From positions 1-58,149 of IMG/VR virus record IMGVR_UViG_3300020470_000561: 58,149 nt of DNA. One strand, 5' to 3'. Shown here in pieces: positions 4,040 to 33,339 of this stretch (its first letter is position 1; every line of letters starts with the position of its first letter). A program made the position numbers and the translations under genes. This DNA is from a virus. Its lineage: Duplodnaviria; Caudoviricetes. The notes below the pieces were generated by a model. That model was not told where the DNA came from. It made no database searches and saw only the letters and a list, made by a program, of their open reading frames with translations.

Positions 4040-4096
4040 ATTATAACTCAATCTGAGTCATCTGTATCAGCGACTCCACCAGTTCCTAAACTGGCA
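4040..4096 (-). promoter_or_regulatory. promoter for the nuclease/MTase pair: TGCCAGTT-N4-AACTGG palindrome upstream of TATAAT
   Basis: TATAAT at 4040-4045, 24 nt before the ATG; palindrome at 4079-4096 with about the same spacing as at 650-704. Confidence 0.55.
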
Positions 4097-6021: not shown

Positions 6022-6072
6022 CCACCCTAACTGGTGGTCTGAAAAAATATGAGCATCTTAACTGATGCCCAT
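6022..6072 (-). promoter_or_regulatory. twin RNA hairpins with matching AGUUA(A/G) loops; the first is followed by AUUUUUU (terminator/attenuator-like)
   Basis: ATGGGCATC-AGTTAA-GATGCTCAT (6049-6072) and CCACC-AGTTAG-GGTGG (6022-6037). Confidence 0.6.
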
Positions 6073-6079
6073 GTAAATT

Positions 6080-6108
6080 ACTATACCACTGCTGTCAACC
6101 CCTGTCAA
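6080..6108 (-). promoter_or_regulatory. sigma70-type promoter TTGACA-N17-TATAGT
   Basis: Consensus -35, 17-nt spacer, extended -10 TG. Confidence 0.75.
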
Positions 6109-6377
6109 CCCCCTTTCTTAGGATACGTTATATCATACTCAATCACGATCTTCTTAGACTGTCTACCTACTGAGTTACTGGTACAATACTGTGTCCACTC
6201 ACCCTTCAACAATGCTTCCATCGTATTCTTATCTAATCCACATAAATTTACAGCATTATCAACTGCTGCTCTAACAGACTCCAAACCATCAGGATATACT
6301 CGTTTAGCAAATCCATTAAGGTCAGTCTTCTTGGCATCCTCTAATGCCTTATCAATGTCAATATGAAATTCACTCAT
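6105..6377 (-). CDS. hypothetical protein
   Basis: ORF track; ATGA coupling. Confidence 0.7.
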   Translation of the reverse strand: MSEFHIDIDKALEDAKKTDLNGFAKRVYPDGLESVRAAVDNAVNLCGLDKNTMEALLKGEWTQYCTSNSVGRQSKKIVIEYDITYPKKGG

Positions 6378-6553
6378 TGCTTCGTTGTATTGCTACGAGT
6401 ACGGTTAATAATGCTAATAAATTTGTCGCCAGCAAAATGTCCACCAAGACACACATCGATCTCATCCCCATCTTTCCAATTAGTCTCACCATTCATCTTA
6501 GTATGTTGCATTAATACTGCAATCTTATCTATGACCTCTTGTGTTAATCTCAT
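6374..6553 (-). CDS. hypothetical protein (59 aa, MRLTQEVIDKI...)
   Basis: Track ORF trimmed to the ATG that overlaps the upstream stop (ATGA). Confidence 0.7.
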   Translation of the reverse strand: MRLTQEVIDKIAVLMQHTKMNGETNWKDGDEIDVCLGGHFAGDKFISIINRTRSNTTKQ

Positions 6554-6672
6554 TGTAAATAATCCACTATTTTGAGTATACCATATGCTGTGAATACCTG
6601 TGGTATAATAAATGCCACCATCGCAATCACCCAAAACACATAGTAGTAGTTTTCTTTATTTTGTGTTCTCAT
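6550..6672 (-). CDS. small membrane protein (40 aa, MRTQNKENYYYVFWVIAMVAFIIPQV...)
   Basis: Translated by hand; ATGA overlaps at both ends; hydrophobic helix. Confidence 0.75.
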   Translation of the reverse strand: MRTQNKENYYYVFWVIAMVAFIIPQVFTAYGILKIVDYLQ

Positions 6673-7007
6673 GATGACTTACCTGTGATATCATTTGGTA
6701 GATCTTCATTTCCTGGATGATCGTTTATCTTACCTTTATATGCTTTATGATTATAGAAATGCTCATCCTCTATTTCCATATCATCCCACTCATGTGGATA
6801 TACTAAGACGTTAGTTTCTTTATATCCGTGCATACTGTTAGGATCTTCCCTGCGATTCATACTAACAGTAATATATTGGTCACCAATAAAATTAATATGT
6901 CCTTCTTCACCACTCTTAAGTCTAACCTTCATACCTCTTTCAAGAGATTTAAGAATGTTTCTAACTTCCAATGGAATTGCCTCCGCTAAGAATATAGGAA
7001 TAGTCAT
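6669..7007 (-). CDS. hypothetical protein
   Basis: ORF track; overlaps both neighbours. Confidence 0.7.
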   Translation of the reverse strand: MTIPIFLAEAIPLEVRNILKSLERGMKVRLKSGEEGHINFIGDQYITVSMNRREDPNSMHGYKETNVLVYPHEWDDMEIEDEHFYNHKAYKGKINDHPGNEDLPNDITGKSS

Positions 7008-7627
7008 AATGTTAAAGCACTATCATCGTATCCAAATGCTCCTTTCATAAAGTAATTGAATGCCATAGAATAACGCTCTTCATCACTTTCATTAACACTT
7101 ATACTATGTGCTAAGTGTGATGGAAATAATATAATCATACCTTCACATGGTTCAATGCTAACCTCACGCATATTGTATACGTTAGATGTTGCTATGTCAG
7201 GTACAATAGTTTGTGTTACATATGTTGGGAACATTGACCCAACATGAAATCTTAACTCTCCACTATTAGGTGGTACTTTAAAATAGAGACAACCACTAAA
7301 CATACTATTTGTATGTGAGTGACCGTCTCCTTTATCTCCTTTGACATGCTTATTAACCCATGATGATTGATGAATTAATTGATGTCTTTGTCTGCTAATA
7401 CCTAGAATATTATATACATAATGATCCAGATATTCTTCTACTAAATTTCTTATCTCTGGTTGATCTTGCAACCATTGTGTACTACTCTGTCCACCATTAT
7501 TCTGTATTACATCTGCTGCTACATACTCACATTTTGTATTAATGACACTTTGCACCATTGAATCATCAAGGTTCATTGTATCAATATAAACTGGTTGCGA
7601 AAATAGAGGTAGTACTTCTCCGTTCAT
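7004..7627 (-). CDS. 2OG-Fe(II) oxygenase (TIGR02466-like)
   Basis: LFSQPV, SWVN, HSH, SGCLY, FPSHLAH, RYSMAFN. Confidence 0.88.
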   Translation of the reverse strand: MNGEVLPLFSQPVYIDTMNLDDSMVQSVINTKCEYVAADVIQNNGGQSSTQWLQDQPEIRNLVEEYLDHYVYNILGISRQRHQLIHQSSWVNKHVKGDKGDGHSHTNSMFSGCLYFKVPPNSGELRFHVGSMFPTYVTQTIVPDIATSNVYNMREVSIEPCEGMIILFPSHLAHSISVNESDEERYSMAFNYFMKGAFGYDDSALTL

Positions 7628-7797
7628 CTTAGATGTAATTTATCATAGATTGATTCAATTTCACTGCGTTGTTCTTTAGTAACACCGCCAAACTTCTTGT
7701 ACAATTGTCCTTGATAAATGAAAAGTGCTTTCCTTAATGTTTTCATTTCGGACGGAATTAATAACTGCCTAAAGCACCTAGGGTCTGATTCTTGCAT
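7624..7797 (-). CDS. hypothetical protein (57 aa, MQESDPRCFRQLL...)
   Basis: Translated by hand; fills the gap and is ATGA-coupled to the downstream gene. Confidence 0.6.
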   Translation of the reverse strand: MQESDPRCFRQLLIPSEMKTLRKALFIYQGQLYKKFGGVTKEQRSEIESIYDKLHLR

Positions 7798-8494
7798 TGG
7801 TCATAATTTGTTCTACTGTTGATGGGTTGAAACCTAGTATACCATGGTCGTTAACTGGTGGCAAGTTATTCATCTCGTGATCGTCAAATAACTTCTGCCT
7901 TGTCTTGGGATCCATATATTTGAATGCCATGATGTATCGGTTACTCTTGTACCGTGGGGTTGGTGGTCTACCTGAATGAGGTATGCGACCATCAAAAATT
8001 ACTACACGACCTGGTTTAGGACTCACAATATATTTAGCGTCTAGGTTGTGATCGTAGAATATAGTCTCTCCACCCCAGTTAGGATGCCACTCTGGGTTCA
8101 AATATAATAATACTGTCTGATTATCCTCTACAAAATATGGTGAATCTACATGCACACCAGGCATATCACCATCCTTAAGTACATTAACGTATGCACTATA
8201 TAAATTCTCTCTTTTGGGCATTTTTGGGCAAACTGCTTCCAAATAACCAAGGATATCTAAGTATATTGGATCCTCACTTGCTTGTAGTCCTGGATTCTGA
8301 AAGTAATTAGGATTAGATACTGGACAAAAATTATATAATTGATGTGTCCAATACATACCTGCCATATCTACATCAGGTTTCTTCTCTGTTGGTGGATCAT
8401 CAGTACGAGTAAACTTATAAGGTAGATACATTACCTTATAGAATAACTCCTCATTAGACATGCCAGTATCATATGTTTCAAGAAGCATACTCAT
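7778..8494 (-). CDS. 2OG-Fe(II) oxygenase (prolyl-4-hydroxylase-like)
   Basis: HVD, YLNPEWHPNWGGET, PKPGRVVIFDGRIPH, R; start is 8494 or 8488. Confidence 0.9.
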   Translation of the reverse strand: MSMLLETYDTGMSNEELFYKVMYLPYKFTRTDDPPTEKKPDVDMAGMYWTHQLYNFCPVSNPNYFQNPGLQASEDPIYLDILGYLEAVCPKMPKRENLYSAYVNVLKDGDMPGVHVDSPYFVEDNQTVLLYLNPEWHPNWGGETIFYDHNLDAKYIVSPKPGRVVIFDGRIPHSGRPPTPRYKSNRYIMAFKYMDPKTRQKLFDDHEMNNLPPVNDHGILGFNPSTVEQIMTNARIRP

Positions 8495-9101
8495 GTACCC
8501 CCACAACATTTAATGACATAATATATCTATCATTCTCTGCCTTATTGACTTCTGTCTTATGTGTCAACCATCCTGGAAAGAATAATACATCATTAGTTTT
8601 AACATCAATATAATCCCACTCATATTGATTAGGATAATAATCATATACTAATGGTTCATTCATTTTATATACTTGTAGTGGATTCTTCACCATAAACCTA
8701 CCACTACCTTCAGGTACATCAAGATAACATGATACTGCTATCTGTACATTCTGGTGATGATGCTCCTCTGTATATCCTCCAGTAGGATGCACATTTAACC
8801 ATGATGAATCTAATTGTCTTCGCATTGGCATCATTCGCCACATTGACCACAACTCATCTATCTTCTTATATAACCAATCTTCTCTAAATGATTTAAACTC
8901 TTCCCAATTATGTGGTGGATCCTCTTTGCATAATACAACAGTAGTTACAGCACCATCTTTCTCATGTGTGTTGATATTTTCCCTTTGTATCTTCTCATCA
9001 GCATGACGTATATAATCTTGTACCTTATTCTTTACTGTCTGAAAATTAAAGTCATAAGATGATTTGTATATGTATGGGTGTGGATTAAGAGGGGAGAGCA
9101 T
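8478..9101 (-). CDS. 2OG-Fe(II) oxygenase (TIGR02466-like)
   Basis: SWLN, EHHH, FPGWLTH, RYIMSLN. Confidence 0.88.
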   Translation of the reverse strand: MLSPLNPHPYIYKSSYDFNFQTVKNKVQDYIRHADEKIQRENINTHEKDGAVTTVVLCKEDPPHNWEEFKSFREDWLYKKIDELWSMWRMMPMRRQLDSSWLNVHPTGGYTEEHHHQNVQIAVSCYLDVPEGSGRFMVKNPLQVYKMNEPLVYDYYPNQYEWDYIDVKTNDVLFFPGWLTHKTEVNKAENDRYIMSLNVVGVHEYAS

Positions 9102-9798
9102 AATAATTTCTATCTACTTTATTCAAACTACACAAGTGCTGCATAGGTATACTCAAAGATAATCTCTTTGCTTTGGGTTGTGCACGATGATATGTCCTTG
9201 CTGGTATGTATATTATATCACCTGGTTTCATATTAACATCAATAGCAACCTCTAATTTACTTGGATCAACACCTTGTGATAAATCATTAGCATTAGCACT
9301 ATAATCTAACTGCTCAACTAAATTAGATGCACGATTATTATATACTGTCCAATGTGTTTCACCTTCAACCTGTATGATTAGATTGTTAGCATAATCCTCA
9401 TGTATATTAAATGATCTAGTATCACCTAAACCACAAAATACATGCATTGATGCATGTATATTAAATGTCTCTTCTAAATCTCTTAATATCTCTTTCTTAC
9501 TCTGATTAATATATTCAAACTTCTCTATTATACATGTATGACCCTCAGCAAATATATCCATGAGTTGTCGTACTTCTGGTTGTGCATGTGGATCCCATGC
9601 TCTCTCATGTTTAGGATAATCTATAAACTGATTAACAAACTTATTAATAAACTTTATATCAAACTGATTAGGATTATTCAAACAATATTCTATATCCTTC
9701 CATGTCACCAGACCAGTAGGATCTATTGCACTCTCCCAATAGTGTGGTGCATCATCATAATGCCAATCTTTATTTAAACTCGAAGAGATCTTCATCAC
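9085..9798 (-). CDS. JmjC/cupin-family oxygenase
   Basis: FNIHED, IIQVEGETHW, MKPGDIIYIPARTYH; resembles ribosomal-oxygenase-type cupins. Confidence 0.85.
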   Translation of the reverse strand: MMKISSSLNKDWHYDDAPHYWESAIDPTGLVTWKDIEYCLNNPNQFDIKFINKFVNQFIDYPKHERAWDPHAQPEVRQLMDIFAEGHTCIIEKFEYINQSKKEILRDLEETFNIHASMHVFCGLGDTRSFNIHEDYANNLIIQVEGETHWTVYNNRASNLVEQLDYSANANDLSQGVDPSKLEVAIDVNMKPGDIIYIPARTYHRAQPKAKRLSLSIPMQHLCSLNKVDRNYYALPS

Positions 9799-10420
9799 AA
9801 GTAAAGTTGAGGTTTAATACAATACGCCACTTGCTATCACCAGTAGGATTAGATGATGCGTGGAATGTGTGACCATCAAATACAAATAATTTATTTGCCT
9901 GTGGTTTCACTCTCAAATGCTCAGTATATTTTTGTGTCCTTGCTTTATACCATCTCTCTTCTACTGATCCATCTTTAGGATCATCATACTGTTCAAAGAA
10001 TACAGTGTCACCAGTAGAGTCATGCAAATAATATAATGCTGCATAATGATCCTTCTCACTATCTGTGTGTGGTGCATTATGATGTGTCTTACCATTATTT
10101 AATTGTAATGCTAGTCTAACTCGTAGAAACTGTACAGGGCATGGCAGGGCATCTTGCACAGTATATAATAACGGTTCAAACCTAGGTAACCAAGGTGACT
10201 CTACATTATCCTGATCTAATAGCACATGAGTGAATCCAATAGATTTCTCATCCTCTGGCATGTCTAGTAATGGTACATCACCAAACATAACATCACGAGT
10301 ACTGTAACTCACATCTTCTGATAAGAAATACCATGGGAATCCATTCATCCCATTTACCATATCAAATAACTTTGAGTGGTACGTTGGTGTTAGCAGATCG
10401 TTTACTTGGATATACTTCAT
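9770..10420 (-). CDS. 2OG-Fe(II) oxygenase
   Basis: FPWY, PHTD, YYLHDSTGDT, FDGHTFHAS, RIVLNLN; start trimmed to MKYIQVND. Confidence 0.87.
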   Translation of the reverse strand: MKYIQVNDLLTPTYHSKLFDMVNGMNGFPWYFLSEDVSYSTRDVMFGDVPLLDMPEDEKSIGFTHVLLDQDNVESPWLPRFEPLLYTVQDALPCPVQFLRVRLALQLNNGKTHHNAPHTDSEKDHYAALYYLHDSTGDTVFFEQYDDPKDGSVEERWYKARTQKYTEHLRVKPQANKLFVFDGHTFHASSNPTGDSKWRIVLNLNFTCDEDLFEFK

Positions 10421-11042
10421 TATCTTGATATATTTTAGAAAACACATGTAGATTGAATGATAGAGATATTCTCTCATCCTCACTACTACTTCTATCCACA
10501 CTATGTGGTAACCATGAGGGGAATACTACTAATTGATTCTCTTTAGGAGAATGATAGTGTTCTGTCTCATTTAGATGCTCCCATCTATCAAAGTTAGGAT
10601 CACATCCCCAACCCTCTTTAAGGTTTTGATCTTTAAAATCTCTTAGGAATTTAAGATCACCACTACAACAGGTTGGTACCTTAGCATAAAATACTCCAGA
10701 TAATACACTACCTGCATGTGTATGCACATGATTGTAGTTACCTCTGGTATTTACATTCATCCAGAGATTAGATACCTCAAGTATATAATGCTGGAATCCC
10801 CACTCGTCTGCTGCTTTATAACTTATCTCTAATATCTTTTCATACAACTCAGTGAGTGCGTGATCTTGTTTAATATATGGTGGTATAAAATCTTGCGATT
10901 GCCATCCACCATCATTAGACGCAACCCTACCATTAGGATCTGTCTCCTTAACAATCTTAACCCACTTTTGAATTCTCTCTAAATCTACACCACAATCATC
11001 CTCAACCCATACAGGTGTAGGAAATAACAATTTAGTCTCCAT
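10362..11042 (-). CDS. 2OG-Fe(II) oxygenase (TIGR02466-like)
   Basis: LFPTPVW, SNDGGWQS, HTH, SGVFY, FPSWLPH, RISLSFN. Confidence 0.9.
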   Translation of the reverse strand: METKLLFPTPVWVEDDCGVDLERIQKWVKIVKETDPNGRVASNDGGWQSQDFIPPYIKQDHALTELYEKILEISYKAADEWGFQHYILEVSNLWMNVNTRGNYNHVHTHAGSVLSGVFYAKVPTCCSGDLKFLRDFKDQNLKEGWGCDPNFDRWEHLNETEHYHSPKENQLVVFPSWLPHSVDRSSSEDERISLSFNLHVFSKIYQDNEVYPSKRSANTNVPLKVI

Positions 11043-11389
11043 CAGTCATCCGAAAATACAAAATCTCTCTCGGAACAATTTGGATCTACATGCTTCTTAT
11101 AAAGAGCAAGTGCTTCAACTGCTCCAGATAATTTATTAAGAAGGTCTTTCTTATTCTGCAACTCTTCAAGTGATATCTTAGTGATAGTACTTGTATAGTG
11201 CATATTATCTAATGCCTCTTGCAACTTCTGATACTCTTCTTTAGCAGTCTCATGCTGCTGTAAGAAATTCATTACCAATTCATCAAAGGTAATCAGACCC
11301 TCGATCTGCTTTTCCTCTTTCTCACTTGCTGGGGTTACACCTGCTTCATCAGCAAGATCAACCACCGCTACATCTTGTTCGTCTGCCAT
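11042..11389 (-). CDS. hypothetical coiled-coil protein
   Basis: ORF track; heptad-like helix; late promoter about 24 nt upstream. Confidence 0.7.
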   Translation of the reverse strand: MADEQDVAVVDLADEAGVTPASEKEEKQIEGLITFDELVMNFLQQHETAKEEYQKLQEALDNMHYTSTITKISLEELQNKKDLLNKLSGAVEALALYKKHVDPNCSERDFVFSDD

Positions 11390-12277
11390 TTAATTAAACC
11401 TCTCATTGTTTTTATTTAGCTTGAGAATCTTCTTTTGATTCTCTATCCTATCTTTTAAGGATGACATTTCCATAAAGTGCATGTACCTGTTATAGTCCAT
11501 CTGCTCATTATTCTTTTTATCATCCTCATTCATTTCCTCAATAACAATATCCCAGTCATTCTCTTTAGCATAGAAGAATGATCTATCAACAGGCATCCAT
11601 TGGCATAATGGGGTACCTGCTTTAATCAAATGCTCTCCTGGTGCTGTGTCATGCCAGAATAATTGTAGATTGATTTCAAATGAATAAGATGGATCCACAA
11701 GTCCTGTTGGTGGTGTGAATCTCTTCTCATCCCAATATGGTATAGGCATTTGAATGAATAACACATCAGGATGTGCCATCACTCTCCATGGTAGTTCTAA
11801 TTTAACAGTGTGTCTAAGTACATCTCTTTGTGGGTTAATTAACTCACGCATGAACTCAGTCTGCTCAGGTATATGTGCTTTAACATATGTCTGACCACCA
11901 CTATCAAATAGTAACTGTGCCATCCATTCAAAGTTATCACCACTACCATCAGTTTGTATAAGGATATCAGCAGGTGCTACCAACACAAAACCATGTTCCA
12001 TTATACCTGTAATAGCAGGGCAAGTGACGGCATGTTGGAACATAGCGTCCTCTGCTTTAACTTCACCCTGTCTCACTGAGTGGTACTTAGTCCACATCCT
12101 TTGTACTTTCTTATAAGGACACTGTGTCTCTTTAGTATAATACTTTTTGAGAGCATTCTTAACCCATGGTCTCTGCAATTTACTCGCAGGTATCCATGGG
12201 TTTAGATCAGCAACACCAGGATGCTGAGAATAGAATCTAATCCACTTCTTATTCTTCTTTTTAAACGGATTCCACAT
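11390..12277 (-). CDS. hypothetical protein, possible dUTPase-like beta fold
   Basis: CPAI...GF, KLELPW, GLVD and IKAGTPLCQ motifs of a family often seen next to cyanophage oxygenases (recalled, not searched). Confidence 0.55.
   Translation of the reverse strand: MWNPFKKKNKKWIRFYSQHPGVADLNPWIPASKLQRPWVKNALKKYYTKETQCPYKKVQRMWTKYHSVRQGEVKAEDAMFQHAVTCPAITGIMEHGFVLVAPADILIQTDGSGDNFEWMAQLLFDSGGQTYVKAHIPEQTEFMRELINPQRDVLRHTVKLELPWRVMAHPDVLFIQMPIPYWDEKRFTPPTGLVDPSYSFEINLQLFWHDTAPGEHLIKAGTPLCQWMPVDRSFFYAKENDWDIVIEEMNEDDKKNNEQMDYNRYMHFMEMSSLKDRIENQKKILKLNKNNERFN
11413..11418 (-). promoter_or_regulatory. candidate T4-type late promoter (TAAATA)
   Basis: CTAAATA about 24 nt upstream of the ATG at 11389. 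Confidence 0.5.
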
Positions 12278-13862
12278 AGATATTATCTTTAAGGTATTGG
12301 TAATGCGAAGGTTGATCTTTCACCCATTCTAGCATAAATTTTCTTTCTTGTTGCCAGTTAACATGTACTGATTCAACAACTGATCTCCGATCTTTATCAG
12401 ACCTCTCTTTATATAGTGTATCGGTTAGAGGACGGTTGTCCATACCTGCTGCAATATAAAGTAATCCCTCTAATTTATCAGGTGCATAGAAAGCATTCAT
12501 AACACTATCCATTAGAGCATATGTGTTTGCCAGTGATAACTGTCTAACATTACTATCGAGATCTTCCAATCTAGTAGGTACATCCACATCTTCTGTGCAT
12601 GATCTCCAGTATGGTGTATCGTCACGTTGAGACAACACCCAATGTAATACTATAAAGTTTCTCATCACTTCTGTCAAGTGGTCTACACTATAATTGTATG
12701 ATTGCCTATCGAAATTGTTCATCTTTCGTGACTTTCTTGCCTTAATAGCATCTACCAAGTAAATAAGATTCTCATGTGTGGTCATTAAACCAGTAGATTC
12801 TAATGGTTCAATAAACGCATATGATAATCCGATACCTACTACATTCTTAACCCATGCCTTCTCATGTTTACCATGTTTGATATCAATATGATGTACGTTA
12901 CTTATCTTTGGATACCTACCATATCTCTTCTTAAGATATGCATAAAATTCTTTTAATGCTTCTTCTGAACTAGGTTGGAATTTACTAGAATATACATAAC
13001 CAACACCAACATTAGACCACAGTGGTATATTCCATGCCCACCCATTATCTAATCCTGTGCAGTCAGTAACACATTCCATCTCCTTATCTTTATCACCATA
13101 CTCAATATGACCAGCAATTGCTTTGTCATTATATAATTGATTTTTGAATGATATAAATTCAGATCCACAATGCTGCTCAAGTAGTAATGATTTGAACCCA
13201 GTGCAATCTAAGAATAGATCTGCTCCAACATAATTACCCTCAGTAGTTACGATTGCTTCAATATAACCATCAGGTCTCTTAATAACATTTTTAACTGTAC
13301 CTTCTAGGTGCTTGACACCATTAGGTATAGCAATATTATTTTTTAAATACTCTCCAAACTTACCAGCATTCAAATGATATGCATAATCTTCCCTATGGTC
13401 AAATTTTGATTTAGGTATATCAGTTGCTATTTTATTATGCTCTGCTATCCATGTCTGGTTATTAACAAAACGAGAGAACTCCTCTGGTGGATATAACTCA
13501 TCACCATATTGACACTGCAATTCAAAGAACCGCATAATATTATCCTTATAGTCAATCATATCAAATTGACCAAATGGATACTGGAAGTTTTCTCCTTTAC
13601 CCTCTCTAAATGATGTGAATCCTATTGATGTTTTATAGGTAGCATCACACGATGGCATCCACTCTTTATCCTTATCAAATAGATCTATTCTCTTAAGAAA
13701 TCTATTGAAATGTCCTAAAGTAGACTCACCTACACCTATTGTTTTAATGTCACTAGACTCTATCAAGCATATTTCCATATCAGGAAATGTCTTGGCAAAG
13801 ATAGCAGCAGACATCCATCCACTACTACCACCTCCTACAATACATACCGATTCAATCAGCAT
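12261..13862 (-). CDS. flavin-dependent halogenase (tryptophan halogenase/PrnA family)
   Basis: GGGSSG, IGVGEST, catalytic Lys in ATYK, DCTGF, GWAWNIP, FIEPLESTG, RDDTPYW. Confidence 0.93.
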   Translation of the reverse strand: MLIESVCIVGGGSSGWMSAAIFAKTFPDMEICLIESSDIKTIGVGESTLGHFNRFLKRIDLFDKDKEWMPSCDATYKTSIGFTSFREGKGENFQYPFGQFDMIDYKDNIMRFFELQCQYGDELYPPEEFSRFVNNQTWIAEHNKIATDIPKSKFDHREDYAYHLNAGKFGEYLKNNIAIPNGVKHLEGTVKNVIKRPDGYIEAIVTTEGNYVGADLFLDCTGFKSLLLEQHCGSEFISFKNQLYNDKAIAGHIEYGDKDKEMECVTDCTGLDNGWAWNIPLWSNVGVGYVYSSKFQPSSEEALKEFYAYLKKRYGRYPKISNVHHIDIKHGKHEKAWVKNVVGIGLSYAFIEPLESTGLMTTHENLIYLVDAIKARKSRKMNNFDRQSYNYSVDHLTEVMRNFIVLHWVLSQRDDTPYWRSCTEDVDVPTRLEDLDSNVRQLSLANTYALMDSVMNAFYAPDKLEGLLYIAAGMDNRPLTDTLYKERSDKDRRSVVESVHVNWQQERKFMLEWVKDQPSHYQYLKDNIYVESV

Positions 13863-15321
13863 AGATAGTCCTCTTATAATACTCGTAAGGTGTTGGCATA
13901 TTATCTATATCAATATCCCATACTGGTCGCTCTAATGTAGTGAGCATTGGATCAGTTGGTCCAAAGAAATCAATCTCAGATTCTATCACACTATTAAATG
14001 GTGTCCAACCATGTCCTGCCATAATACACCACAATCCTTCATATAATGGATGCCATTGATACTTCTGACCAAAGTTACTTGACTCCTCCAAGAAATTAAT
14101 TTGTGCAGTCTGTATCATATGGTGGTTAGGGTATTTAATACTGCTAACATGCTTCCAATATGGTGAATCATCTCTCTGTGTACCAGCATAATGCATAGCA
14201 ACGAATGATGCAAATGCATCAAAGGTATACTTACAATTCTCATTGAAAGTATCTCTCATAAACTGAGTATGTACTGGTCTATCCTCTAGCACACGTACCA
14301 ACATCAGGAGATAGTTATGAATAGATAGTAATCCATTAGATTCTAATGGTTCAATAAACCCAGCAGATAGTCCAATCGATACTACATTATCCTTCCATAC
14401 TTCTTCCTTACGTCCTGTCTTCCATTTAAGTTGACGGAACAATTTGTCAGTATAACATCCACAATCAGATTGTACATTATTTGTTAAATGTTCCCTGAAT
14501 TCATTTCGGGCATCCTCTGGCGAAATGAACTTATCACAATAAACATATCCTGTACCTATAGTATCAAAGGTGGGTACATTCCATACCCATCCACTACTTA
14601 ATGCTGTGCAATCAGTAACAGGTTTGATTTGCTCATTCTTATCATCATAATGTACACGTGTTACCCATGCACTATTATTTGGTAGATAGTCCTCATAACT
14701 CACCCATGGTGAATCATTAAAGACTGACTTAAATCCTGTGCAATCAAATAATAGATCATGCTTAGGTAGTTTATTCTTATTAACTTTCTTCTTCTTATGC
14801 TTAATACCTTTAGGTAAACAATAGTTATCTCTCAACCATGCAGAGAATTTTACTGCATTAAAATGAAATCCACTATTATGTTTGACATTGAACCAAGGAT
14901 TATCAGTAACAGGTAGTTTATTTCTAGCACCACATTCTGCTGCTAAGTAATAGTCTCTTGCTAAACCATCTGAGGGCCATTTGTCCTTATATTGCTTATA
15001 AAACCACATATCAGGGGTATATGTGTCAGTCCTAGGCAATCCAAATGGATATTGCCATGGGATATCCCCTTTCTTATGGAAGTCGTGGAATTGTACACTA
15101 ATCTTATAGGTAGCATCACACTCCTTCATCCACTCTTCATCTTCTATTCCAACATAATATAACCACTTACGAAAAAACTGTGTAGTAGATTCCCCAACCC
15201 CAGTAGCAGGGGATTGTTCATCTTCGTACACAGTTATGTTTGCTTTTGGATATGCTTTTACCATGGTAGCAGCAGTCATCCAACCTGCGGTGCCACCTCC
15301 CACAACGACAATATCTTTCAT
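13852..15321 (-). CDS. flavin-dependent halogenase (tryptophan halogenase/PrnA family)
   Basis: GGGTAG, GVGEST, ATYK, DCTGF, GWVWNVP, FIEPLESNG, RDDSPYW. Confidence 0.93.
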   Translation of the reverse strand: MKDIVVVGGGTAGWMTAATMVKAYPKANITVYEDEQSPATGVGESTTQFFRKWLYYVGIEDEEWMKECDATYKISVQFHDFHKKGDIPWQYPFGLPRTDTYTPDMWFYKQYKDKWPSDGLARDYYLAAECGARNKLPVTDNPWFNVKHNSGFHFNAVKFSAWLRDNYCLPKGIKHKKKKVNKNKLPKHDLLFDCTGFKSVFNDSPWVSYEDYLPNNSAWVTRVHYDDKNEQIKPVTDCTALSSGWVWNVPTFDTIGTGYVYCDKFISPEDARNEFREHLTNNVQSDCGCYTDKLFRQLKWKTGRKEEVWKDNVVSIGLSAGFIEPLESNGLLSIHNYLLMLVRVLEDRPVHTQFMRDTFNENCKYTFDAFASFVAMHYAGTQRDDSPYWKHVSSIKYPNHHMIQTAQINFLEESSNFGQKYQWHPLYEGLWCIMAGHGWTPFNSVIESEIDFFGPTDPMLTTLERPVWDIDIDNMPTPYEYYKRTIYAD

Positions 15322-15342
15322 AACGAAGAGTTGCTCTGATTA

Positions 15343-15774
15343 TTATGCCACAGGCGGTACCCAGTTGTCAACCCATGGTTCCCATGCCTTACGTCCAACT
15401 AACTGGACTTTCTTAGGGTCTTCTACAAATGGTGGAATACTATCTGGTTTAGTGGTCGTTGCCTTTACATTAGCAACATGGTCTTTCCACTCAGTAGTAC
15501 CATTGACTGCATCTCGGTATTGCATGTCCATCTGCTCACCGAAATCACCATATGCCAAAATCCTATCAACAGTGGCATTAACTCTTAAATCTTCTGTTGT
15601 TGTTCTGTGAATTACTTCACCATTGCACATAAAATGTTCGTAGGTTGTGTCATCTGGTACATCTACCCACTTAAGTGTTGCATCTGGTCCCTCATAAATT
15701 GCAAACTTATCTGCTTCATCGCAGATGTCTGTGAGTTGACCTGATTCAGCGTTACAAATTGCTACTTTAGACAT
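15343..15774 (-). CDS. tail fibre assembly/chaperone-like protein
   Basis: R..AY...EQMD..Y.D...GT..WKD.V..VK....KP motif; directly follows fibre genes; late promoter upstream. Confidence 0.6.
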   Translation of the reverse strand: MSKVAICNAESGQLTDICDEADKFAIYEGPDATLKWVDVPDDTTYEHFMCNGEVIHRTTTEDLRVNATVDRILAYGDFGEQMDMQYRDAVNGTTEWKDHVANVKATTTKPDSIPPFVEDPKKVQLVGRKAWEPWVDNWVPPVA

Positions 15775-15796
15775 TGTTTTAATTAACTCCGTAATT

Positions 15797-15803
15797 TATT
15801 TAT
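15797..15803 (-). promoter_or_regulatory. T4-type late promoter (ATAAATA)
   Basis: Upstream of gene 15774. Similar TAAATA boxes precede genes at about 17451, 18286, 20011, 23609, 27191, 32417, 33058, 33312, 40652, 50592, 51777 and 56192. Confidence 0.75.
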
Positions 15804-16624
15804 TAACCGTAGTATTCATAAACTACGACTACACCTTCACGACCTCTCGCTCCTCTGTTACCAAACATGGATCCATTACCACCAGCACCCCACGCTGCAT
15901 GGGACTGATGTCTATGGGCATAGTTTGCTTGGTTGTGACTCGAAGGTTGAGATCCACCCATATATGATACTCCACAGTTGTGGTTACCATATCTACCCCA
16001 TGATCCATATCCGTTTCCACCTCCACCATAGATGTTGAGGTTTCCACCTGATCCATTACCACCGATACCTCCTGCATGTTGTGTCCTACAGTTGGCACCA
16101 TATCCACCTGATGCAGAGCAGTATCCTCCGAAGGAAGAACTGTTACCATTACCACCGCAACCTGAGTAGTTTGTACCACCACCTGGGTTACCAATACTTA
16201 CTGATACTGATGATACGTTGGTAACATCAATAACTCTTTGTGAGCATCCACCAGCACCTGCTGACTCACAATAACCAGATCCCCCGCCACCAGCACCGAC
16301 GACAACTACCTTGATGGACTTACAGTTACTTGGTTTATTCCAAGTACCATTAGATGTCCAGACCTGCATAGATCTGAAACCTGCTCCACCTCCACCACCT
16401 TCAAAATCTGTAGACCAAATCAAATTGGTACCATCAGTGCTTAGGAACCTACCTGATTGACCTGAAAGAGATGGGATATTGTAGTTTGATGACCCTGTTA
16501 TATCACCGTTGATATTAATATCTTGGACTCGTAGTGTTCCATTGGCAGTGATAGAACCTGAATTGAAGGAAAATCCTCCCAATCCAGCAAGGTCTGATAC
16601 TCCTGATACTTTAAGAACACTCAT
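15803..16624 (-). CDS. glycine-rich tail fibre/adhesin-like protein, paralogue 3
   Basis: RSMQVWTSNGTW..GAGGGGSG..GREGVVVV domain; late gene context. Confidence 0.75.
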   Translation of the reverse strand: MSVLKVSGVSDLAGLGGFSFNSGSITANGTLRVQDININGDITGSSNYNIPSLSGQSGRFLSTDGTNLIWSTDFEGGGGGAGFRSMQVWTSNGTWNKPSNCKSIKVVVVGAGGGGSGYCESAGAGGCSQRVIDVTNVSSVSVSIGNPGGGTNYSGCGGNGNSSSFGGYCSASGGYGANCRTQHAGGIGGNGSGGNLNIYGGGGNGYGSWGRYGNHNCGVSYMGGSQPSSHNQANYAHRHQSHAAWGAGGNGSMFGNRGARGREGVVVVYEYYG

Positions 16625-17430
16625 CCGAAGAACTCCTGAACGATAACGACACCTTCACGACCTCTGGCACCACGGTTACCGTGACCAGATCCATTACCAC
16701 CTGCACCCCAAGCACAGTGTGATTGATGCCTATGAGCATAATTCATTTGGTTATGGGATGATGGTTGCGAACCTCCCATTGAAGAAGCACCTGCTTGGTG
16801 TGATCCAAATGACCAATATGATCCATGACCGTTACCACCTCCACCGTAAATATTCAGAGTACCACCTGATCCGTTTCCTCCAATACCTCCTGCGTGTTGC
16901 TGTCTACAGTTTGCACCATACCCTCCTGAAGCAGAGCAATAACCACCAAAACTTGATGAGTTACCACTTCCTCCACATCCAGCGTAGTTTGTACCTCCGC
17001 CAGGATTACCTATTGATACTGATACTGAAGATACGTTGGTAACATCAATAACTCTCTCAGATGTACCACCAGCACCAGCAGATTCGCAGAATCCACTGCC
17101 ACCTCCACCAGCACCTACTACAGTAACAATAATACTCGTGACACCAGTTGGTTTAGTCCATGTACCATTAGATGTCCAAACTTGCATAGAGCGAATACCA
17201 GATGCTGCTGATACTTCTGCCCATTCAAATCCACTACCAGTAGATCTTAATGCCTTACCAGCATTACCACCCTGATCAGGCACGTTATAAGTAGATCCTC
17301 CACTTATAGTACCGTTGATGACCAAATTTGAAACAGTTAGAGTGGTCGTCGCAGTTATACCACCCCCTGAGAGCATAAACCCTTGGGATCCTGTTAAATC
17401 TTTTAGTGCTGCAACTTTTAGCTTAGACAT
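16621..17430 (-). CDS. glycine-rich tail fibre/adhesin-like protein, paralogue 2
   Basis: Same domain, near-identical to its neighbours. Confidence 0.75.
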   Translation of the reverse strand: MSKLKVAALKDLTGSQGFMLSGGGITATTTLTVSNLVINGTISGGSTYNVPDQGGNAGKALRSTGSGFEWAEVSAASGIRSMQVWTSNGTWTKPTGVTSIIVTVVGAGGGGSGFCESAGAGGTSERVIDVTNVSSVSVSIGNPGGGTNYAGCGGSGNSSSFGGYCSASGGYGANCRQQHAGGIGGNGSGGTLNIYGGGGNGHGSYWSFGSHQAGASSMGGSQPSSHNQMNYAHRHQSHCAWGAGGNGSGHGNRGARGREGVVIVQEFFG

Positions 17431-17453
17431 AAGTTAAATCTGTCCTGTGTTAT

Positions 17454-18263
17454 TTATCCGTAGAACTCATGCACTACGACGACTCCTTCACGTCCTCTAG
17501 CACCTCGACCACCATGCTGTGCTCCGTTACCACCTGATCCCCATGCACAATGACTTTGGTGTTGGTGTGCATAGTTTCTTTGTCCATGAGATGATGCTTG
17601 TGTACCACCCCAATAACTTGATCCAGCAGTATGGTTTCCATAACTGTGGTGAGAACCGTGACCGTTTCCTCCACCACCATAAACATTTAGAGACCCTCCA
17701 GATCCGTTACCTCCAATACCACCTGCATGTTGAGTTCTGCAGTTGGCTCCGTAACCTCCAGAGGCACTACAATACCCACCAAAACTTGATGAGTTACCAG
17801 ACCCACCGCAACCTGAGTAATTAGATCCTCCACCTGGATTACCTACTGTGACCGAAACTGACGAAACATTAGTAACATCAACCTGTCTCTGAGCAGTACC
17901 TCCAGCACCACCAGATTCAGTATATCCAGATCCACCACCCCCAGCACCAGTGACAGTAACCATAATGGTTTTAACACCATTCGGTCTACTCCATGTACCA
18001 TTAGATGTCCAGACCTGCATCGATCTCACACCTGAAGTTGTTGATAATGTACCCCACGTTAGGTTGGATCCATTATTGGTAACATACTTATCGGTTTGTC
18101 CTGATGGACTTGGGAGAATATATGCAGAAGATCCAGCAATATTGCCGTTGATAACCAGATCGTTAACAGTTAAGGTGCCGTTCGCTGTAATGCCACCAGA
18201 ACTGAAGGTGAAACCTCCGATCCCTGCCGTATCTTTAATAGCTCCCAGGTTTAACTGTGCCAT
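17454..18263 (-). CDS. glycine-rich tail fibre/adhesin-like protein, paralogue 1
   Basis: Same domain; late promoter at about 18286. Confidence 0.75.
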   Translation of the reverse strand: MAQLNLGAIKDTAGIGGFTFSSGGITANGTLTVNDLVINGNIAGSSAYILPSPSGQTDKYVTNNGSNLTWGTLSTTSGVRSMQVWTSNGTWSRPNGVKTIMVTVTGAGGGGSGYTESGGAGGTAQRQVDVTNVSSVSVTVGNPGGGSNYSGCGGSGNSSSFGGYCSASGGYGANCRTQHAGGIGGNGSGGSLNVYGGGGNGHGSHHSYGNHTAGSSYWGGTQASSHGQRNYAHQHQSHCAWGSGGNGAQHGGRGARGREGVVVVHEFYG

Positions 18264-18292: not shown

Positions 18293-19123
18293 TTATGCGG
18301 TTCCTCTAAACACAAAGAAACTATAACTTGTTGATGAATACTGACCACCCCAGTAAAAATACTGTGAGGGACCAGATGAGTCACCAGCATGATAGTTTTC
18401 GCATCCATAACTATAACCTGAGTTGTTACTCAATCGAGGACCAGGTGAGTCACCGTTGACATCACCTATCATGTTACAACCCCAGACACCATCATCAGCA
18501 GAGAACCTGTTGTCCTGATAATATCCATTACTACCCTGCTGTCCATTATCTGAATAGTACGTCCTTGCACTACTACTACCTTCATCTCTTTCACTACCAT
18601 TAGCATTTATAGCAAATGTGTAGAGATTCCTCCATTGTACTGGATAGAATAGATTCTTCATTGAAGCGGTACTATAGTCACGATAAAAGTTAACTTGAAT
18701 ACCATAATAGGTATTATCTCGATAACCTACCATACCTAAGAAAGGTATACCATTATATGTTGGATTAGGAAAACCAGCAGAGTTTTCAATCTGGTTACCA
18801 CTTGCAAATTCTTGTCGATAGAAATAACCACCACCACTAATCGGGTTTTGTTGACCCATGGATTCTGCCATAGCACCGTATCTTGGTGTAGCAACTACCA
18901 TGAATTGATATTCCTGTATCCTATTAATGATACTACCGTAGTTATTATATGACCAACCTTGTCCTGCTAGTGATGAATTTAATAGAAGCATACGTCCATA
19001 TGCTCCCTGTGGACCACTTGGTCCTCCTCCACCACCAGTCGATCCATCACCACCCATACCACCAGTATGGGCCATACCCCTACCAGTTGGGACAAATATT
19101 GATTTAAAACCGAATGCCGACAT
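18293..19123 (-). CDS. putative virion/fibre-associated protein (Gly/Tyr/Asn-rich)
   Basis: Composition and position within the late fibre cluster. Confidence 0.55.
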   Translation of the reverse strand: MSAFGFKSIFVPTGRGMAHTGGMGGDGSTGGGGGPSGPQGAYGRMLLLNSSLAGQGWSYNNYGSIINRIQEYQFMVVATPRYGAMAESMGQQNPISGGGYFYRQEFASGNQIENSAGFPNPTYNGIPFLGMVGYRDNTYYGIQVNFYRDYSTASMKNLFYPVQWRNLYTFAINANGSERDEGSSSARTYYSDNGQQGSNGYYQDNRFSADDGVWGCNMIGDVNGDSPGPRLSNNSGYSYGCENYHAGDSSGPSQYFYWGGQYSSTSYSFFVFRGTA

Positions 19124-33311: not shown

Positions 33312-33333
33312 TATTTATACTAATATTATAGCA
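33312..33333 (-). promoter_or_regulatory. cp12 promoter: TGCTATAAT extended -10 and TATAAATA late box
   Basis: Both motifs lie in the intergenic gap. Confidence 0.65.
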
Positions 33334-33339
33334 AATATA

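Follow-up and report, generated by a model that had tools for sequence, protein, structure and literature searches.

We found that the block of enzyme and small genes between 15.8 and 6.1 kb of the window (the whole 58,149-nt stretch analysed, a marine cyanophage contig) belongs to a cassette that is conserved and mobile among T4-like cyanophages. The fibre half of this cassette carries two or three glycine-rich paralogues, likely fibre-tip proteins, and a small 143-aa factor; its enzyme half carries one or two VirX1-type halogenases, a dUTPase-fold protein, a 115-aa protein and five to ten non-orthologous 2OG/JmjC oxygenases. We tentatively propose, with less than even confidence, that these enzymes modify a peptide or protein substrate, for which the glycine-rich fibre proteins would be the leading candidates.

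Gene content of the enzyme half

Open reading frames together with Pfam and PHROG matches place six oxygenases and two halogenases in one block, with the gene content that an earlier, sequence-only reading of this DNA had listed. All genes and signals given with coordinates below lie on the minus strand. That reading had also put the spacing at 21 nt or less, which holds for all gaps but one, that of 34 nt separating 6669 from 6634 (in order from 15774 to 6105 the values are +21, -11, -17, 0, -1, -140, -29, -17, -32, -20, -4, -4, +34 and -4 nt, negative values being overlaps). Given the 140-nt overlap, the true start of ORF 9770-10501 probably sits further downstream.

Halogenase B (12261..13862, 533 aa; PF04820, E 1.1e-98) is the VirX1 orthologue and aligns with PDB 6qgm over residues 3-529 on 4-527 (E 2.4e-141). 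Its paralogue, halogenase A (13852..15321, 489 aa; PF04820, E 5.8e-82; against VirX1, E 4.1e-82), is optional in relatives, being missing from about 19-20 of 56 judged loci. Judged by their retained catalytic motifs, both predicted flavin-dependent halogenases are intact, and across 27 sequences the invariant residues of halogenase B are G10-G12, G15, K77, W275, I279, P280 and E352-S356. The entries for VirX1 in a review describe a trimer whose large, open active site takes bulky substrates, and an enzyme that halogenates many small aromatics in vitro; the review's table gives it no biosynthetic cluster, in keeping with the earlier statement that natural substrates are largely unknown. No flavin reductase had been recognised before, and PF01613 and PF03358 indeed have no match anywhere in the contig, which represents about 31% of the genome by the CheckV figure.

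The gene of a 295-aa beta-rich protein (11390..12277) overlaps that of halogenase B by 17 nt. Its AlphaFold2 model (pLDDT 76) has a predicted dUTPase fold: every top match in a Foldseek search of the PDB was a dUTPase or dCTP deaminase, and VIA-align gave Z up to 9.4 across 128-138 residues, covering whole dUTPase chains. C86 is invariant among homologues, and the conserved stretches APADIL, GLVDPSYSFEIN and GTPLxQW resemble dUTPase motifs 1, 3 and 4. The modelled C-terminus is helical and is not a motif-5 arm, and Pfam dUTPase was unmatched at E 0.01. This protein adjoins a VirX1-type halogenase in 14 of 16 phage records and is missing in three phages that have the module (P-RSM6, S-SZBM1 and S-WAM1). 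The acidic 115-aa protein that follows (11042..11389), the first of the oxygenase array, is kept in related loci at 46-83% identity and has no significant family match in Pfam or PHROGs.

The array itself (7004..11042; Pfam and PHROG matches) comprises five 2OG-Fe(II) oxygenases (10362-11042, 9770-10501, 8478-9101, 7778-8509 and 7004-7627) and a JmjC oxygenase (9085-9798; best Pfam match PF08007, scoring 60.9 bits where the cut-off is 22), with a 57-aa gene (7624-7797) among them. The HxD/E/H...H pattern is found in all six oxygenases. The nearest solved chains to the JmjC protein are YxbC/asparaginyl hydroxylase, NO66 and MINA (E 3e-5); the NO66 and MINA structure entries bear the title histidyl-hydroxylases, and the substrates of both are ribosomal proteins. 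The oxygenase at 7778-8509 matches HIF prolyl hydroxylase weakly (E 5e-4), and the Pfam and PHROG scans gave no nucleic-acid oxygenase family for any oxygenase of the array. Three small genes close the unit (6105..7007: 6669-7007, 6374-6634 and 6105-6377), matching phrog_8681, phrog_475 and phrog_618, which are families without a function label; the 112-aa gene among them is kept at the array end in relatives. Just downstream of the block lie two DNA methyltransferase genes, and more 2OG oxygenases and a cupin adjoin metabolic genes elsewhere in the window.

Fibre half, regulatory signals and inheritance

The upstream anchor of the block is a 1190-aa tail fibre protein (20014..23586; phrog_529, E 0), followed by a 287-aa fibre-associated protein (19126..19989; phrog_29506); each gene has a TAAATA box 21 nt ahead of its ATG. 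Next comes a 276-aa protein rich in Gly and Tyr (18293..19123; 17% Gly, 9.4% Tyr), which has neither a Pfam nor a PHROG match and is present in just 2 of 47 IMG/VR loci, the nearest ones (L015 and L016). The three glycine-rich paralogues (15803..18263: 17454-18263, 16621-17430 and 15803-16624) are 69-70% identical to one another, and late-type boxes precede the genes starting at 18263 and 17430. They score 29.7, 22.7 and 42 bits against PF21722 Gly_rich_2 (cut-off 24.3), and match phrog_863 "tail fiber assembly" (E 1e-54 to 1e-60) as well as the C-terminal ends of tail-fibre PHROGs, which together make them likely fibre-tip proteins. His, Tyr, Trp and Asn abound in their variable C-terminal segments, and the His/Tyr/Trp content of these proteins is the same in one- and two-halogenase genomes.

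Invariably between the glycine-rich genes and the halogenase is the gene of the 143-aa protein (15343-15774; phrog_1787). Among the 24 phage records with homologues, 20 are cyanophages with the same halogenase clade. Its AlphaFold2 model (pLDDT 92) has no fold match in the PDB; in BFVD it matches Syn9 gp40 (E 2e-9) and then, weakly, "tail fiber assembly protein" (E 0.015-0.5), so that it is possibly a fibre-assembly factor. The sole virion proteome table examined, that of S-SZBM1 (30 proteins), contains orthologues of the 1190-aa fibre (S-SZBM1_52, 82% identical) and of the 287-aa protein (S-SZBM1_51); neither of the two glycine-rich orthologues was detected in it, nor were the small protein, the halogenase or the oxygenases. 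The glycine-rich proteins of the window have 3-8 tryptic peptides of usable size, so poor digestion alone is insufficient to explain their absence.

Two late-type boxes that the sequence-only reading had picked out, at 15797 and 11413, are real, given their fixed distance from the start codon and their conservation in relatives. The first, AATAAATA (15804-15797), lies 22 nt ahead of the ATG at 15774 of the 143-aa gene, and TAAATA stands 22-27 nt ahead of this gene in 52 of 55 related loci with 36 distinct upstream sequences. The second, CTAAATAA (11419-11412), is 23 nt ahead of the ATG at 11389 of the 115-aa gene, where 37 of 39 loci have TAAATA at a distance of 22-25 nt. It sits within the final codons of the 295-aa gene, and the invariant C-terminal residues N288, K289, N290, R293 and F294 of that protein are encoded just where the box and ribosome-binding site lie. 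Throughout the window, TAAATA ends 17-29 nt upstream of 13 of 74 minus-strand starts, against 0-2 at seven control offsets of equal width and a mean of 1.36 (maximum 6) in 1000 shuffles. The remaining late-type boxes sit before structural genes, and none is found in the window ahead of ssb, thyX, phoH, talC, cpeT or the methylases.

Where the fibre half meets the halogenases lies a predicted regulatory boundary. A sigma70-type promoter-like site, TTGACA-18-CATAAT with TGn (15371-15342; 11 of 12 matches), lies 20 nt ahead of the halogenase A ATG, and another is found upstream of the 57-aa gene (7864-7836); neither had been reported in the earlier reading. The pattern TTGAC[AG]-N16-19-TAnnnT precedes the first halogenase in 23 of 31 two-halogenase loci, a conservation that is ambiguous for the -35 hexamer, since this lies inside the conserved codons W-V-D-N-W. 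Single-halogenase relatives have a terminator-like hairpin and T-run abutting the halogenase ATG in 11 of 22 loci, and a late-type box ahead of the first halogenase occurs in 0 of 53 loci. As the junction has no late box and instead a sigma70-type promoter or hairpin, expression is predicted to be mixed, early/middle as well as late; the late expression suggested earlier keeps its two conserved boxes and loses the claim to be late only. At the other end (6049..6108), the best terminator-like site, a 9-bp hairpin followed by ATTTTTT (6072-6049), immediately follows the last gene, within the widest gap (90 nt), with a tandem TTGACA, 17 nt and TATAGT with TGn at 6108-6080.

From 65 halogenase-bearing records we fetched 13 isolate loci, one per phage type. 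The order of two or three glycine-rich genes, small gene, one or two halogenases and oxygenases including JmjC is found in eight of them, at merely 28-55% protein identity. When IMG/VR loci were seeded with the small gene, a glycine-rich gene was directly upstream in 47/47 and, where the locus reached far enough, a halogenase downstream in 45/45; seeding with the glycine-rich protein gave enzymes in 12/12 informative new loci. Collinearity of the enzymes with the glycine-rich paralogues and small gene thus extends to 57 of 57 informative contigs, most of them relatives, so that these counts are not independent events, and common descent rather than selection could account for the adjacency. 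A tblastn search of 50,697 phage records, run with the low-complexity filter on, found the glycine-rich protein in 12, each of which has the cassette. S-RIM44 isolates either carry the entire block or lack it as one unit: KX349292 is without the JmjC and dUTPase-fold genes, the halogenases, the small gene and the glycine-rich genes, retains one oxygenase at the site, and has a downstream flank 96-97% identical to that of the cassette-bearing KX349294. The cassette occurs in two contexts, either following the 1190-aa fibre or placed between the neck gene gp13 and a giant structural protein, and an extra oxygenase lies amid the fibre genes in P-RSM6 and 9 of 47 IMG/VR loci. The proposed linkage to fibre genes is therefore strong for this halogenase clade, and fails for other cyanophage clades (S-B64, S-MbCM6, S-PM2 and Syn1). 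Sf-CH11 has a related halogenase and oxygenases at the same hot spot, with LamG-like/GspG-like neighbours and no glycine-rich genes.

Candidate substrates

In our tentative proposal, halogenation and hydroxylation would run serially on one peptide or protein. The co-inherited glycine-rich proteins would be the leading candidates because of their variable C-terminal segments; the host would supply reduced flavin, and transcription from sigma70-type and late promoters would have the enzymes present while fibre proteins are made. The similarity of the JmjC protein and one oxygenase to protein hydroxylases suggests such a role, as do the late-type boxes before the small gene and the oxygenase array, the linkage to fibre genes, the loss as a unit, the open active site of VirX1 and a 2OG oxygenase found in CsCl-purified virions of another cyanomyovirus. 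Several observations point the other way: the putative regulatory boundary before the halogenases, the undetected glycine-rich orthologues in S-SZBM1 virions, a His/Tyr/Trp content unrelated to halogenase number, the fibre-unlinked halogenases of other clades and Sf-CH11, and the published account of the array, which favours secondary-metabolite synthesis.

According to that account (Iyer et al., 2010), halogenases and unrelated oxygenases modify a small peptide or a free amino acid in series; the product would be a halogenated, hydroxylated antibiotic, siderophore or signal during infection, with the fibre genes mere neighbours. We consider this only slightly less probable than our own proposal. 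In the bacterial neighbourhoods that it describes, JOR/JmjC proteins and peptide synthetases occur together with TonB receptors, classical 2OG oxygenases and one to three Trp-type halogenases; Syn9 gp52- and gp54-type oxygenases recur there, and the oxygenases are non-orthologous as in cephamycin-type pathways (PMC2938197). The small aromatics accepted by VirX1, the S-SZBM1 virion table and auxiliary-gene-like expression, which the sigma70-type site before the halogenases would fit, are in line with it. The scanned ORFs, however, include no peptide synthetase, ATP-grasp, carrier protein, transporter or recognisable precursor, and a free metabolite leaves unexplained both the strict co-inheritance and one-unit loss with the glycine-rich and small genes and the late-type box ahead of the array. 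Those same fibre couplings and late boxes make it unlikely that the targets are in the host, with oxygenases hydroxylating the ribosome, EF-Tu or envelope proteins or draining 2-oxoglutarate to alter nitrogen signalling, and halogenases working on a host metabolite or surface component. Modulation of 2OG/NtcA signalling by cyanophage 2OG oxygenases was proposed by Sullivan et al. (2010), and the NO66 and MINA affinity of the JmjC protein, the sigma70-like sites upstream of two cassette genes and the oxygenases and cupin next to metabolic genes would suit a host target; plain 2OG drawdown, though, needs no fixed-order array of six to ten non-orthologous oxygenases and halogenases besides.

It is similarly improbable that the cassette is a frozen accident of a fibre-to-neck recombination hot spot, gathering genes with several unrelated functions. 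The Sf-CH11 locus, the single oxygenase left in the cassette-free S-RIM44 isolate, the gain and loss of halogenase A and several oxygenases between relatives, and the origin of most counted loci in a few lineages are what such a site would give, but gene order is maintained across named genera and two genomic contexts at 28-45% protein identity, reading frames overlap throughout the array, and conserved promoter boxes lie inside coding sequence. Least probable by far, in our view, is a pyrimidine or deazapurine nucleotide bound by the dUTPase-fold protein and modified by halogenase and oxygenases, for DNA hypermodification or nucleotide-pool sanitation. The modelled fold, the dUTPase-like motifs, the overlap and co-occurrence with the VirX1-type halogenase gene and the neighbouring methyltransferase pair speak for it; against it stand the lack of a Pfam dUTPase match, the helical C-terminus, the scans for nucleic-acid oxygenases, the modules that do without the 295-aa protein and a unit without transferase or glycosylase.

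Comparison with known systems

The enzyme array is not new. It was described in Syn9, with halogenated secondary metabolites proposed, by Iyer et al. (2010, NAR, PMC2938197), a publication and interpretation missing from the sequence-only reading. The passages on Syn9 gp38-gp54 report two Trp-type halogenases, a protein of dUTPase fold in which a cysteine is conserved, a MINA/NO66-clade JmjC (gp49) and unrelated 2OG oxygenases arrayed in tandem; gp38/39, gp40, gp41, gp42, gp43 and gp49 align one to one with genes of the window, at 35-54% protein identity. The window differs in having six oxygenases rather than ten and three glycine-rich genes rather than two. Those passages of the 2010 account make no mention of the glycine-rich genes, gp40 or promoter layout, and our analysis adds the fibre-gene collinearity, the behaviour of the block as a unit in S-RIM44 and the putative regulatory boundary at the junction.

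Halogenase B aligns end to end with VirX1, a flavin-dependent halogenase from cyanophage Syn10 that carries out iodination. The two share the same cassette position, and halogenase B retains GxGxxG, the motif lysine, WxWxIP and FIEPLES; it is about 45% identical to the Syn9/Syn10 orthologues. In the NAI-107 lantibiotic pathway, the flavin-dependent halogenase MibH acts on tryptophan within a ribosomal peptide, a precedent for such chemistry in this class of enzyme; MibH-like peptide halogenases sit in RiPP clusters with a precursor peptide, and the likeness to them is one of enzyme class.

Bacterial JOR/JmjC and Trp-halogenase neighbourhoods with a TonB receptor and SapC, as outlined by Iyer et al. 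(2010), share with the window a JmjC protein, one to three halogenases and a Syn9-gp52-type oxygenase; they have receptors or peptide synthetases and no fibre-like proteins, whereas the window has the reverse. In the bacterial beta-hydroxylase/PhyH operons treated in the same paper, oxygenases are co-encoded with collagen-like or tail-collar proteins, which were proposed as their substrates (PMC2938197). Although these operons are cellular, include sulfotransferases and have no halogenases, they are by analogy the nearest published counterpart of the virion decoration that we tentatively propose.

Gene content of the fibre and enzyme halves

The window is a fragment of a T4-like cyanomyovirus with a completeness of about 31%, and nearly all of its genes lie on the minus strand. 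PHROG matches include a baseplate hub, a gp5-like hub-lysozyme, tail tube, ssDNA-binding protein, thymidylate synthase, PhoH, transaldolase and CpeT. Among cultured phages, Prochlorococcus phage P-TIM40 is closest to this region (45-86% protein identity), and a megablast search against the phage collection found no near-identical record.

ORF, Pfam and PHROG scans recovered the gene content as the sequence-only reading had described it. All on the minus strand, the block starts upstream with a 1190-aa tail fibre gene (20014-23586), followed by a 287-aa gene, a Gly/Tyr-rich 276-aa gene and three glycine-rich paralogues of 269-273 aa (PF21722; phrog_863 for the paralogues). Then come a small 143-aa gene (15343-15774), halogenase A (13852-15321, 489 aa), halogenase B (12261-13862, 533 aa), a 295-aa gene (11390-12277) and a 115-aa gene (11042-11389). 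Five 2OG-Fe(II) oxygenase genes (10362-11042, 9770-10501, 8478-9101, 7778-8509 and 7004-7627) complete the enzyme half, with a JmjC gene (9085-9798) between the second and third, and small genes close the unit down to 6105. The genes are packed with small or negative gaps, as had been claimed, but one gap of 34 nt exceeds the proposed limit of 21 nt. The unit ends at a gap of 90 nt, the largest one, which contains a 9-bp hairpin and T-run at 6072-6049, preceded by a sigma70-type site at 6108-6080 (11 of 12 matches). Directly past this terminator-like site, a gene for a 340-aa phrog_2558 protein (4992-6014, minus strand) shares 4 nt with an N6/N4 DNA methyltransferase gene (4048-4995), to which it is thereby coupled. 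A second N6/N4 methylase gene (2566-3405, minus strand) follows 1.5 kb further along, and both methylase units have sigma70-like sites upstream.

The two halogenases match PF04820 with 331.6 and 276.4 bits (cut-off 21), over profile positions 2-411 and 1-444 of 458. The claim of two intact halogenases was borne out; GxGxxG, the motif lysine, WxWx[IV]P and FIEPLES are retained in both. With GxGxxG and WxWxIP taken as halogenase motifs from a review, halogenase B carries GGGSSG and WAWNIP (G10-12, G15, W275, I279 and P280 invariant in 27 sequences) and halogenase A carries GGGTAG and WVWNVP, in which Val replaces Ile. The Lys of ATYK in both proteins aligns with that of the VirX1 ATYK, and K77, E352 and E355 of halogenase B are invariant in the 27 sequences; we infer that this Lys is the catalytic 'K79' of the review, whose numbering is shifted by a few residues. 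Halogenase B aligns with VirX1 (6qgm; E 2.4e-141) over residues 3-529 on 4-527, and holds the second-halogenase slot with the dUTPase-fold 295-aa gene following it, as in Syn9 and Syn10. This end-to-end similarity and gene position identify it as the VirX1 orthologue. According to the review, VirX1 of Syn10 is an iodide-preferring trimer whose active site is open and for which no cluster is known. A predicted complex of halogenase B with the 295-aa protein scored 0.00, which we counted neither for nor against. Searches of the contig (about 31% of the genome) for the flavin reductase families PF01613 and PF03358 found none, upholding the statement that no flavin reductase is recognisable in the window. 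A third, shorter halogenase-like gene (56277-57395, minus strand; 372 aa) matches phrog_2928 (E 2.3e-67) and PF04820 over profile positions 249-442 only. It adjoins, on the upstream side, a gene for a 1251-aa structural-like protein (52414-56169, minus strand), which carries a separate TAAATA box 22 nt ahead of its ATG.

Four of the five oxygenases score above the 2OG-Fe(II) oxygenase Pfam cut-off of 27 (80.6, 56.5, 43.3 and 76.8 bits); the fifth (9770-10501), at 23.4-23.7 bits, is slightly under the Pfam cut-offs and matches phrog_274 with E 1.9e-33. A pattern search placed their iron-binding patterns at HVH105, HTD145, HHH114, HVD120 and HSH103, each with a distal His 40-120 residues past the HxD/E/H. 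The JmjC protein (PF08007, 60.9 bits, cut-off 22) has H133-E-D and the distal His candidates H204 and H221, and the HxD/E/H...H pattern is present in all six oxygenases. The solved chains closest to the JmjC protein are YxbC, NO66 and MINA, and it is 37% identical to its Syn9 gp49 orthologue, the protein for which the MINA/NO66 clade was assigned (Iyer et al., 2010); carried over from that orthologue, the window enzyme would be of the MINA/NO66-clade type. The longest ORF at 9770-10501 (minus strand) shares 140 nt with the upstream oxygenase gene and matches its family from residue 25 on, so its true start is probably an internal ATG at residue 28 or later. Two additional 2OG oxygenase genes (971-1621 and 1618-2199, minus strand) lie past the methylase genes, and a small JmjC-like cupin (28002-28469, minus strand; PF08007 E 6.8e-9) adjoins the transaldolase. 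With these and the gene at 56277-57395, the window totals seven 2OG oxygenases, two JmjC-type proteins and three halogenase-like genes.

The 295-aa protein has no Pfam match at E 0.01. Its model (pLDDT 76) shows a dUTPase-like barrel with helical extensions and a helical C-terminus; the top Foldseek PDB matches are all dUTPase or dCTP deaminase (E from 5.8e-4), and VIA-align gives Z 8.5-9.4, 170 chains reaching at least Z 8. Cysteine C86 is invariant in the alignment, and conserved stretches resemble what we take to be dUTPase motifs 1, 3 and 4. The 143-aa protein is modelled with confidence (pLDDT 92) and has no solved relative in the PDB by Foldseek. Its only named look-alikes are BFVD models of 'tail fiber assembly protein', which are weak (E 0.015-0.5). 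The best VIA-wide Z is 4.4, a cyanophage Pam3 fibre chain reaches Z 3.8 across 96 residues, and the Atlas leads, DUF2977 and XkdW, score below 0.9. We rejected the idea that it is a hidden flavin reductase, as no such fold occurs among the structure-search matches.

Two of the three glycine-rich paralogues score above the PF21722 cut-off. They match the C-terminal ends of the tail-fibre profiles phrog_21412 and phrog_6202, and Atlas clusters contain PF21722 fused with DUF5907 and Mtd_N. By sequence, these proteins appear to be of the fibre-tip or receptor-binding type with a Gly_rich_2 domain. Their N-terminal third is conserved, and in their C-terminal region poly-Gly blocks alternate with His/Tyr/Trp/Asn/Cys-rich segments; a profile of the three paralogues matched nothing among PDB sequences at E 10. 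The 276-aa protein (18293-19123, minus strand), with 17% Gly, 9.4% Tyr and a short G-X-Y stretch of collagen-like type, matches no family and was found in only the two nearest loci (L015 and L016) of 47.

Late boxes and the fibre/halogenase junction

The T4-type late consensus in cyanophages is NATAAATA (Clokie et al., 2010). The box at 15804-15797 (minus strand), AATAAATA, matches it in full, and the box at 11419-11412 (minus strand), CTAAATAA, has the TAAATA core only. On the minus strand, 15 of 40 TAAATA copies are found 19-35 nt upstream of a start, ahead of 14 genes. The motif ends 17-29 nt upstream of 13 of 74 starts, as against 0-2 at seven control offsets and a maximum of 6 in 1000 shuffles. 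It stands before the fibre gene, the 287-, 143- and 115-aa genes, two of the glycine-rich genes and the genes for a baseplate hub, the gp5-like hub and a virion structural protein, among others; in the window, none was found before ssb, exonuclease, PhoH, thymidylate synthase, transaldolase, CpeT or the methylases. Both their position and the genes that they precede fit the late consensus. Among relatives, TAAATA lies 22-27 nt ahead of the small gene in 52 of 55 loci and 22-25 nt ahead of the 115-aa gene in 37 of 39. The boxes proposed at 15797 and 11413 are thus real signals, above chance in position and conserved.

At 11390-11420 (minus strand), the final codons of the 295-aa gene double as a late box, CTAAATAAAAAC, and as the ribosome-binding site for the gene that follows. 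At the C-terminus, residues N288, K289, N290, R293 and F294 (LNKN..ERF) are invariant in 30 sequences in a tail that is otherwise loose; because the box sits in these last codons, this protein conservation reflects nucleotide-level constraint. The genes starting at 51741 and 33287 (minus strand) each lie downstream of both a sigma70-like site and a complete TATAAATA box (51777-51811 and 33312-33353), a possible dual early/late promoter arrangement.

No late box precedes the first halogenase in any of 53 loci. In the window, TTGACA-18-CATAAT with a TGn ends 20 nt ahead of the halogenase A start, and TTGAC[AG]-N16-19-TAnnnT is present in 23 of the 31 loci where the halogenase A type comes first. 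The -35 hexamer of this junction site falls within conserved codons, the -10 hexamer over the stop codon and untranslated bases. Half of the halogenase-B-first loci (11 of 22) instead show a hairpin with compensatory arm changes and a T-run abutting the ATG. Nine of the 27 strong sigma70-like sites on the minus strand sit 5-70 nt before a start, in zones that make up 8.5% of positions, among them those of ssb, the two methylase units, halogenase A and a 57-aa gene. The total count of sigma70-like sites in the window is not above shuffles (84 against 77.4 +/- 9.4), so individual sites draw their support from position and conservation only.

From these signals, the fibre/halogenase junction appears to be a regulatory boundary. 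In our reading, the enzyme half would bear both host-type and late-type signals, a pattern described for 'middle' genes in S-PM2 and Syn9 (Clokie et al., 2010). The proposed late expression of the cluster is therefore supported in part only: conserved late boxes precede the small gene and the 115-aa gene, but the first halogenase has none and a sigma70-type site in its place. Two marine metatranscriptome runs contain about 5% of the region's words, and metatranscriptome contigs overlap parts of fibre, glycine-rich and enzyme genes; these contigs come from RNA libraries and are uninformative on timing, ends and transcription.

One layout recurs, consisting of a sigma70-type -10, then about 20-30 nt on a hairpin and T-run, then the next gene. 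It is seen at 6049-6108 of the window (minus strand) and before halogenase B in L017, L021, L027, L033, L043-L045 and L047, all compared cassette loci. The hairpin arms covary across loci (GCAG/CTGC, GGTG/CACC, GGAG/CTCC), and the layout may end the upstream unit and also give the next transcript a 5' hairpin.

Distribution of the cassette

A tblastn search found halogenase relatives in 64-65 phage records, and we compared 13 isolate loci of our choosing, one per phage type. In eight (P-TIM40, Syn9, S-RIM44 KX349294, P-RSM6, Sf-FP1, S-CREM1, S-SZBM1 and S-WAM1) the order is two or three glycine-rich genes, the small gene, one or two halogenases, and oxygenases including the JmjC orthologue. 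The linkage to fibre genes assumed earlier therefore stands for the cassette phages but not for other halogenases: in S-B64 the gene lies within the replication module, in S-MbCM6, S-PM2 and Syn1 amid hli/psbA/talC genes, and in Sf-CH11 with oxygenases but without glycine-rich genes. The halogenases of these five are 28-40% identical to those of the window.

Other members of the cassette were searched separately. The 143-aa protein has homologues in 24 records, of which 20 are cassette phages; the JmjC protein in 27, including 19 cassette phages; and the 295-aa protein in 16, in 14 of which the gene adjoins a VirX1-type halogenase. With the low-complexity filter on, glycine-rich homologues were found in 12 records, all cassette phages. 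In IMG/VR, seeding on the small gene gave 47 loci, all of them collinear, and the two without a halogenase stop right after the small gene. Seeding on glycine-rich genes gave 54 loci with 13 new contigs; enzymes are present in 12, and the 13th terminates within a glycine-rich gene.

Two halogenases occur in 36 of 56 judged loci and one in 20, a number that includes L015, an incomplete locus that carries both; halogenase A is an optional member of the cassette. The cassette occupies two contexts, one following the 1190-aa fibre, the other flanked by a giant structural protein and the neck gene gp13. An extra 2OG oxygenase lies between the 287-aa gene and the first glycine-rich gene in P-RSM6 (L004, 7366-8109) and, at the same position, in L026, L029, L032, L035, L039-L042 and L060; P-RSM6 and 9 of the 47 IMG/VR loci thus carry an oxygenase amid the fibre genes. 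S-RIM44 KX349292 lacks all cassette genes but one oxygenase, and in the neck-terminase flank it is 96-97% identical to KX349294. These two isolates (KX349294, L003; KX349292, L111), filed as one species, differ by an 11-kb cassette; their giant structural protein genes have also diverged, with 75% nucleotide identity in the sole matching part.

Possible substrates and relation to known systems

A functional tie between the fibre and enzyme halves is suggested by their collinearity at low identity, in two genomic contexts, and by their loss as a unit, together with the extra oxygenase amid fibre genes, the protein-hydroxylase affinities and the late boxes. Against it stand the apparent regulatory boundary at the junction, the lack of a clear correlation between the His/Tyr/Trp columns of the glycine-rich proteins and the presence of one or two halogenases, and the S-SZBM1 virion table, whose 30 proteins include the neighbours _51 to _54 and no glycine-rich orthologues. 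The compared loci are also not independent, which weakens the tie; that the association is an accident of a hot spot seems improbable to us. A 2OG oxygenase was found in purified S-SCSM2R virions, which shows merely that such enzymes can be abundant late.

Modification of proteins, namely those of the fibre, is our tentative reading of what the cassette enzymes do. In its fullest form, the cassette would be a self-contained system for post-translational halogenation and hydroxylation of the phage's own glycine-rich receptor-binding proteins, a virion protein would be the natural substrate of VirX1-type enzymes, and whole-cassette swaps between related phages would change host recognition; we consider this extended version rather unlikely. 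Synthesis of a secondary metabolite is conceivable, if somewhat doubtful. Halogenated, hydroxylated secondary metabolites have been proposed as the products of the array (Iyer et al., 2010), and Pfam/PHROG scans of the submitted ORFs found no peptide synthetase, precursor peptide, carrier or export gene in the unit, which also includes small ORFs of 57-115 aa that lack a family assignment. Action directed at the host has little probability in our judgement. Nucleotide chemistry is very improbable. By its modelled fold, the 295-aa protein would belong to the dUTPase/dCTP deaminase superfamily, and we do not file it as a dUTPase. Decoration of the virion by these enzymes is a plausible interpretation and is testable in cultured phages.

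The observation is real, and the enzyme array is already of a known kind, described in phage Syn9 (Iyer et al., 2010). Halogenase genes have been reported in cyanophages since 2005, and VirX1 has been a biocatalysis tool from 2019, with no natural substrate named to date in the accounts consulted. Labels given to the cyanophage halogenase gene in other papers are transient acquisition, antibiotic gene and auxiliary metabolic gene. The idea of virion decoration in cyanophages was not found in the literature searched. The halogenases move together with a particular group of fibre-tip genes, and within one species some cultured isolates have the whole cassette and others lack it, which reduces the question to a small number of experiments on cultured phages, among them Syn9, Syn10, P-TIM40 and S-RIM44 pairs. 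Should the enzymes act on fibre proteins, they would provide the first example of a halogenated virion protein, and phages would have a new route to diversify receptor binding. The nearest precedent is in bacterial operons, where collagen-like and tail-collar proteins have been proposed as oxygenase substrates (Iyer et al., 2010).
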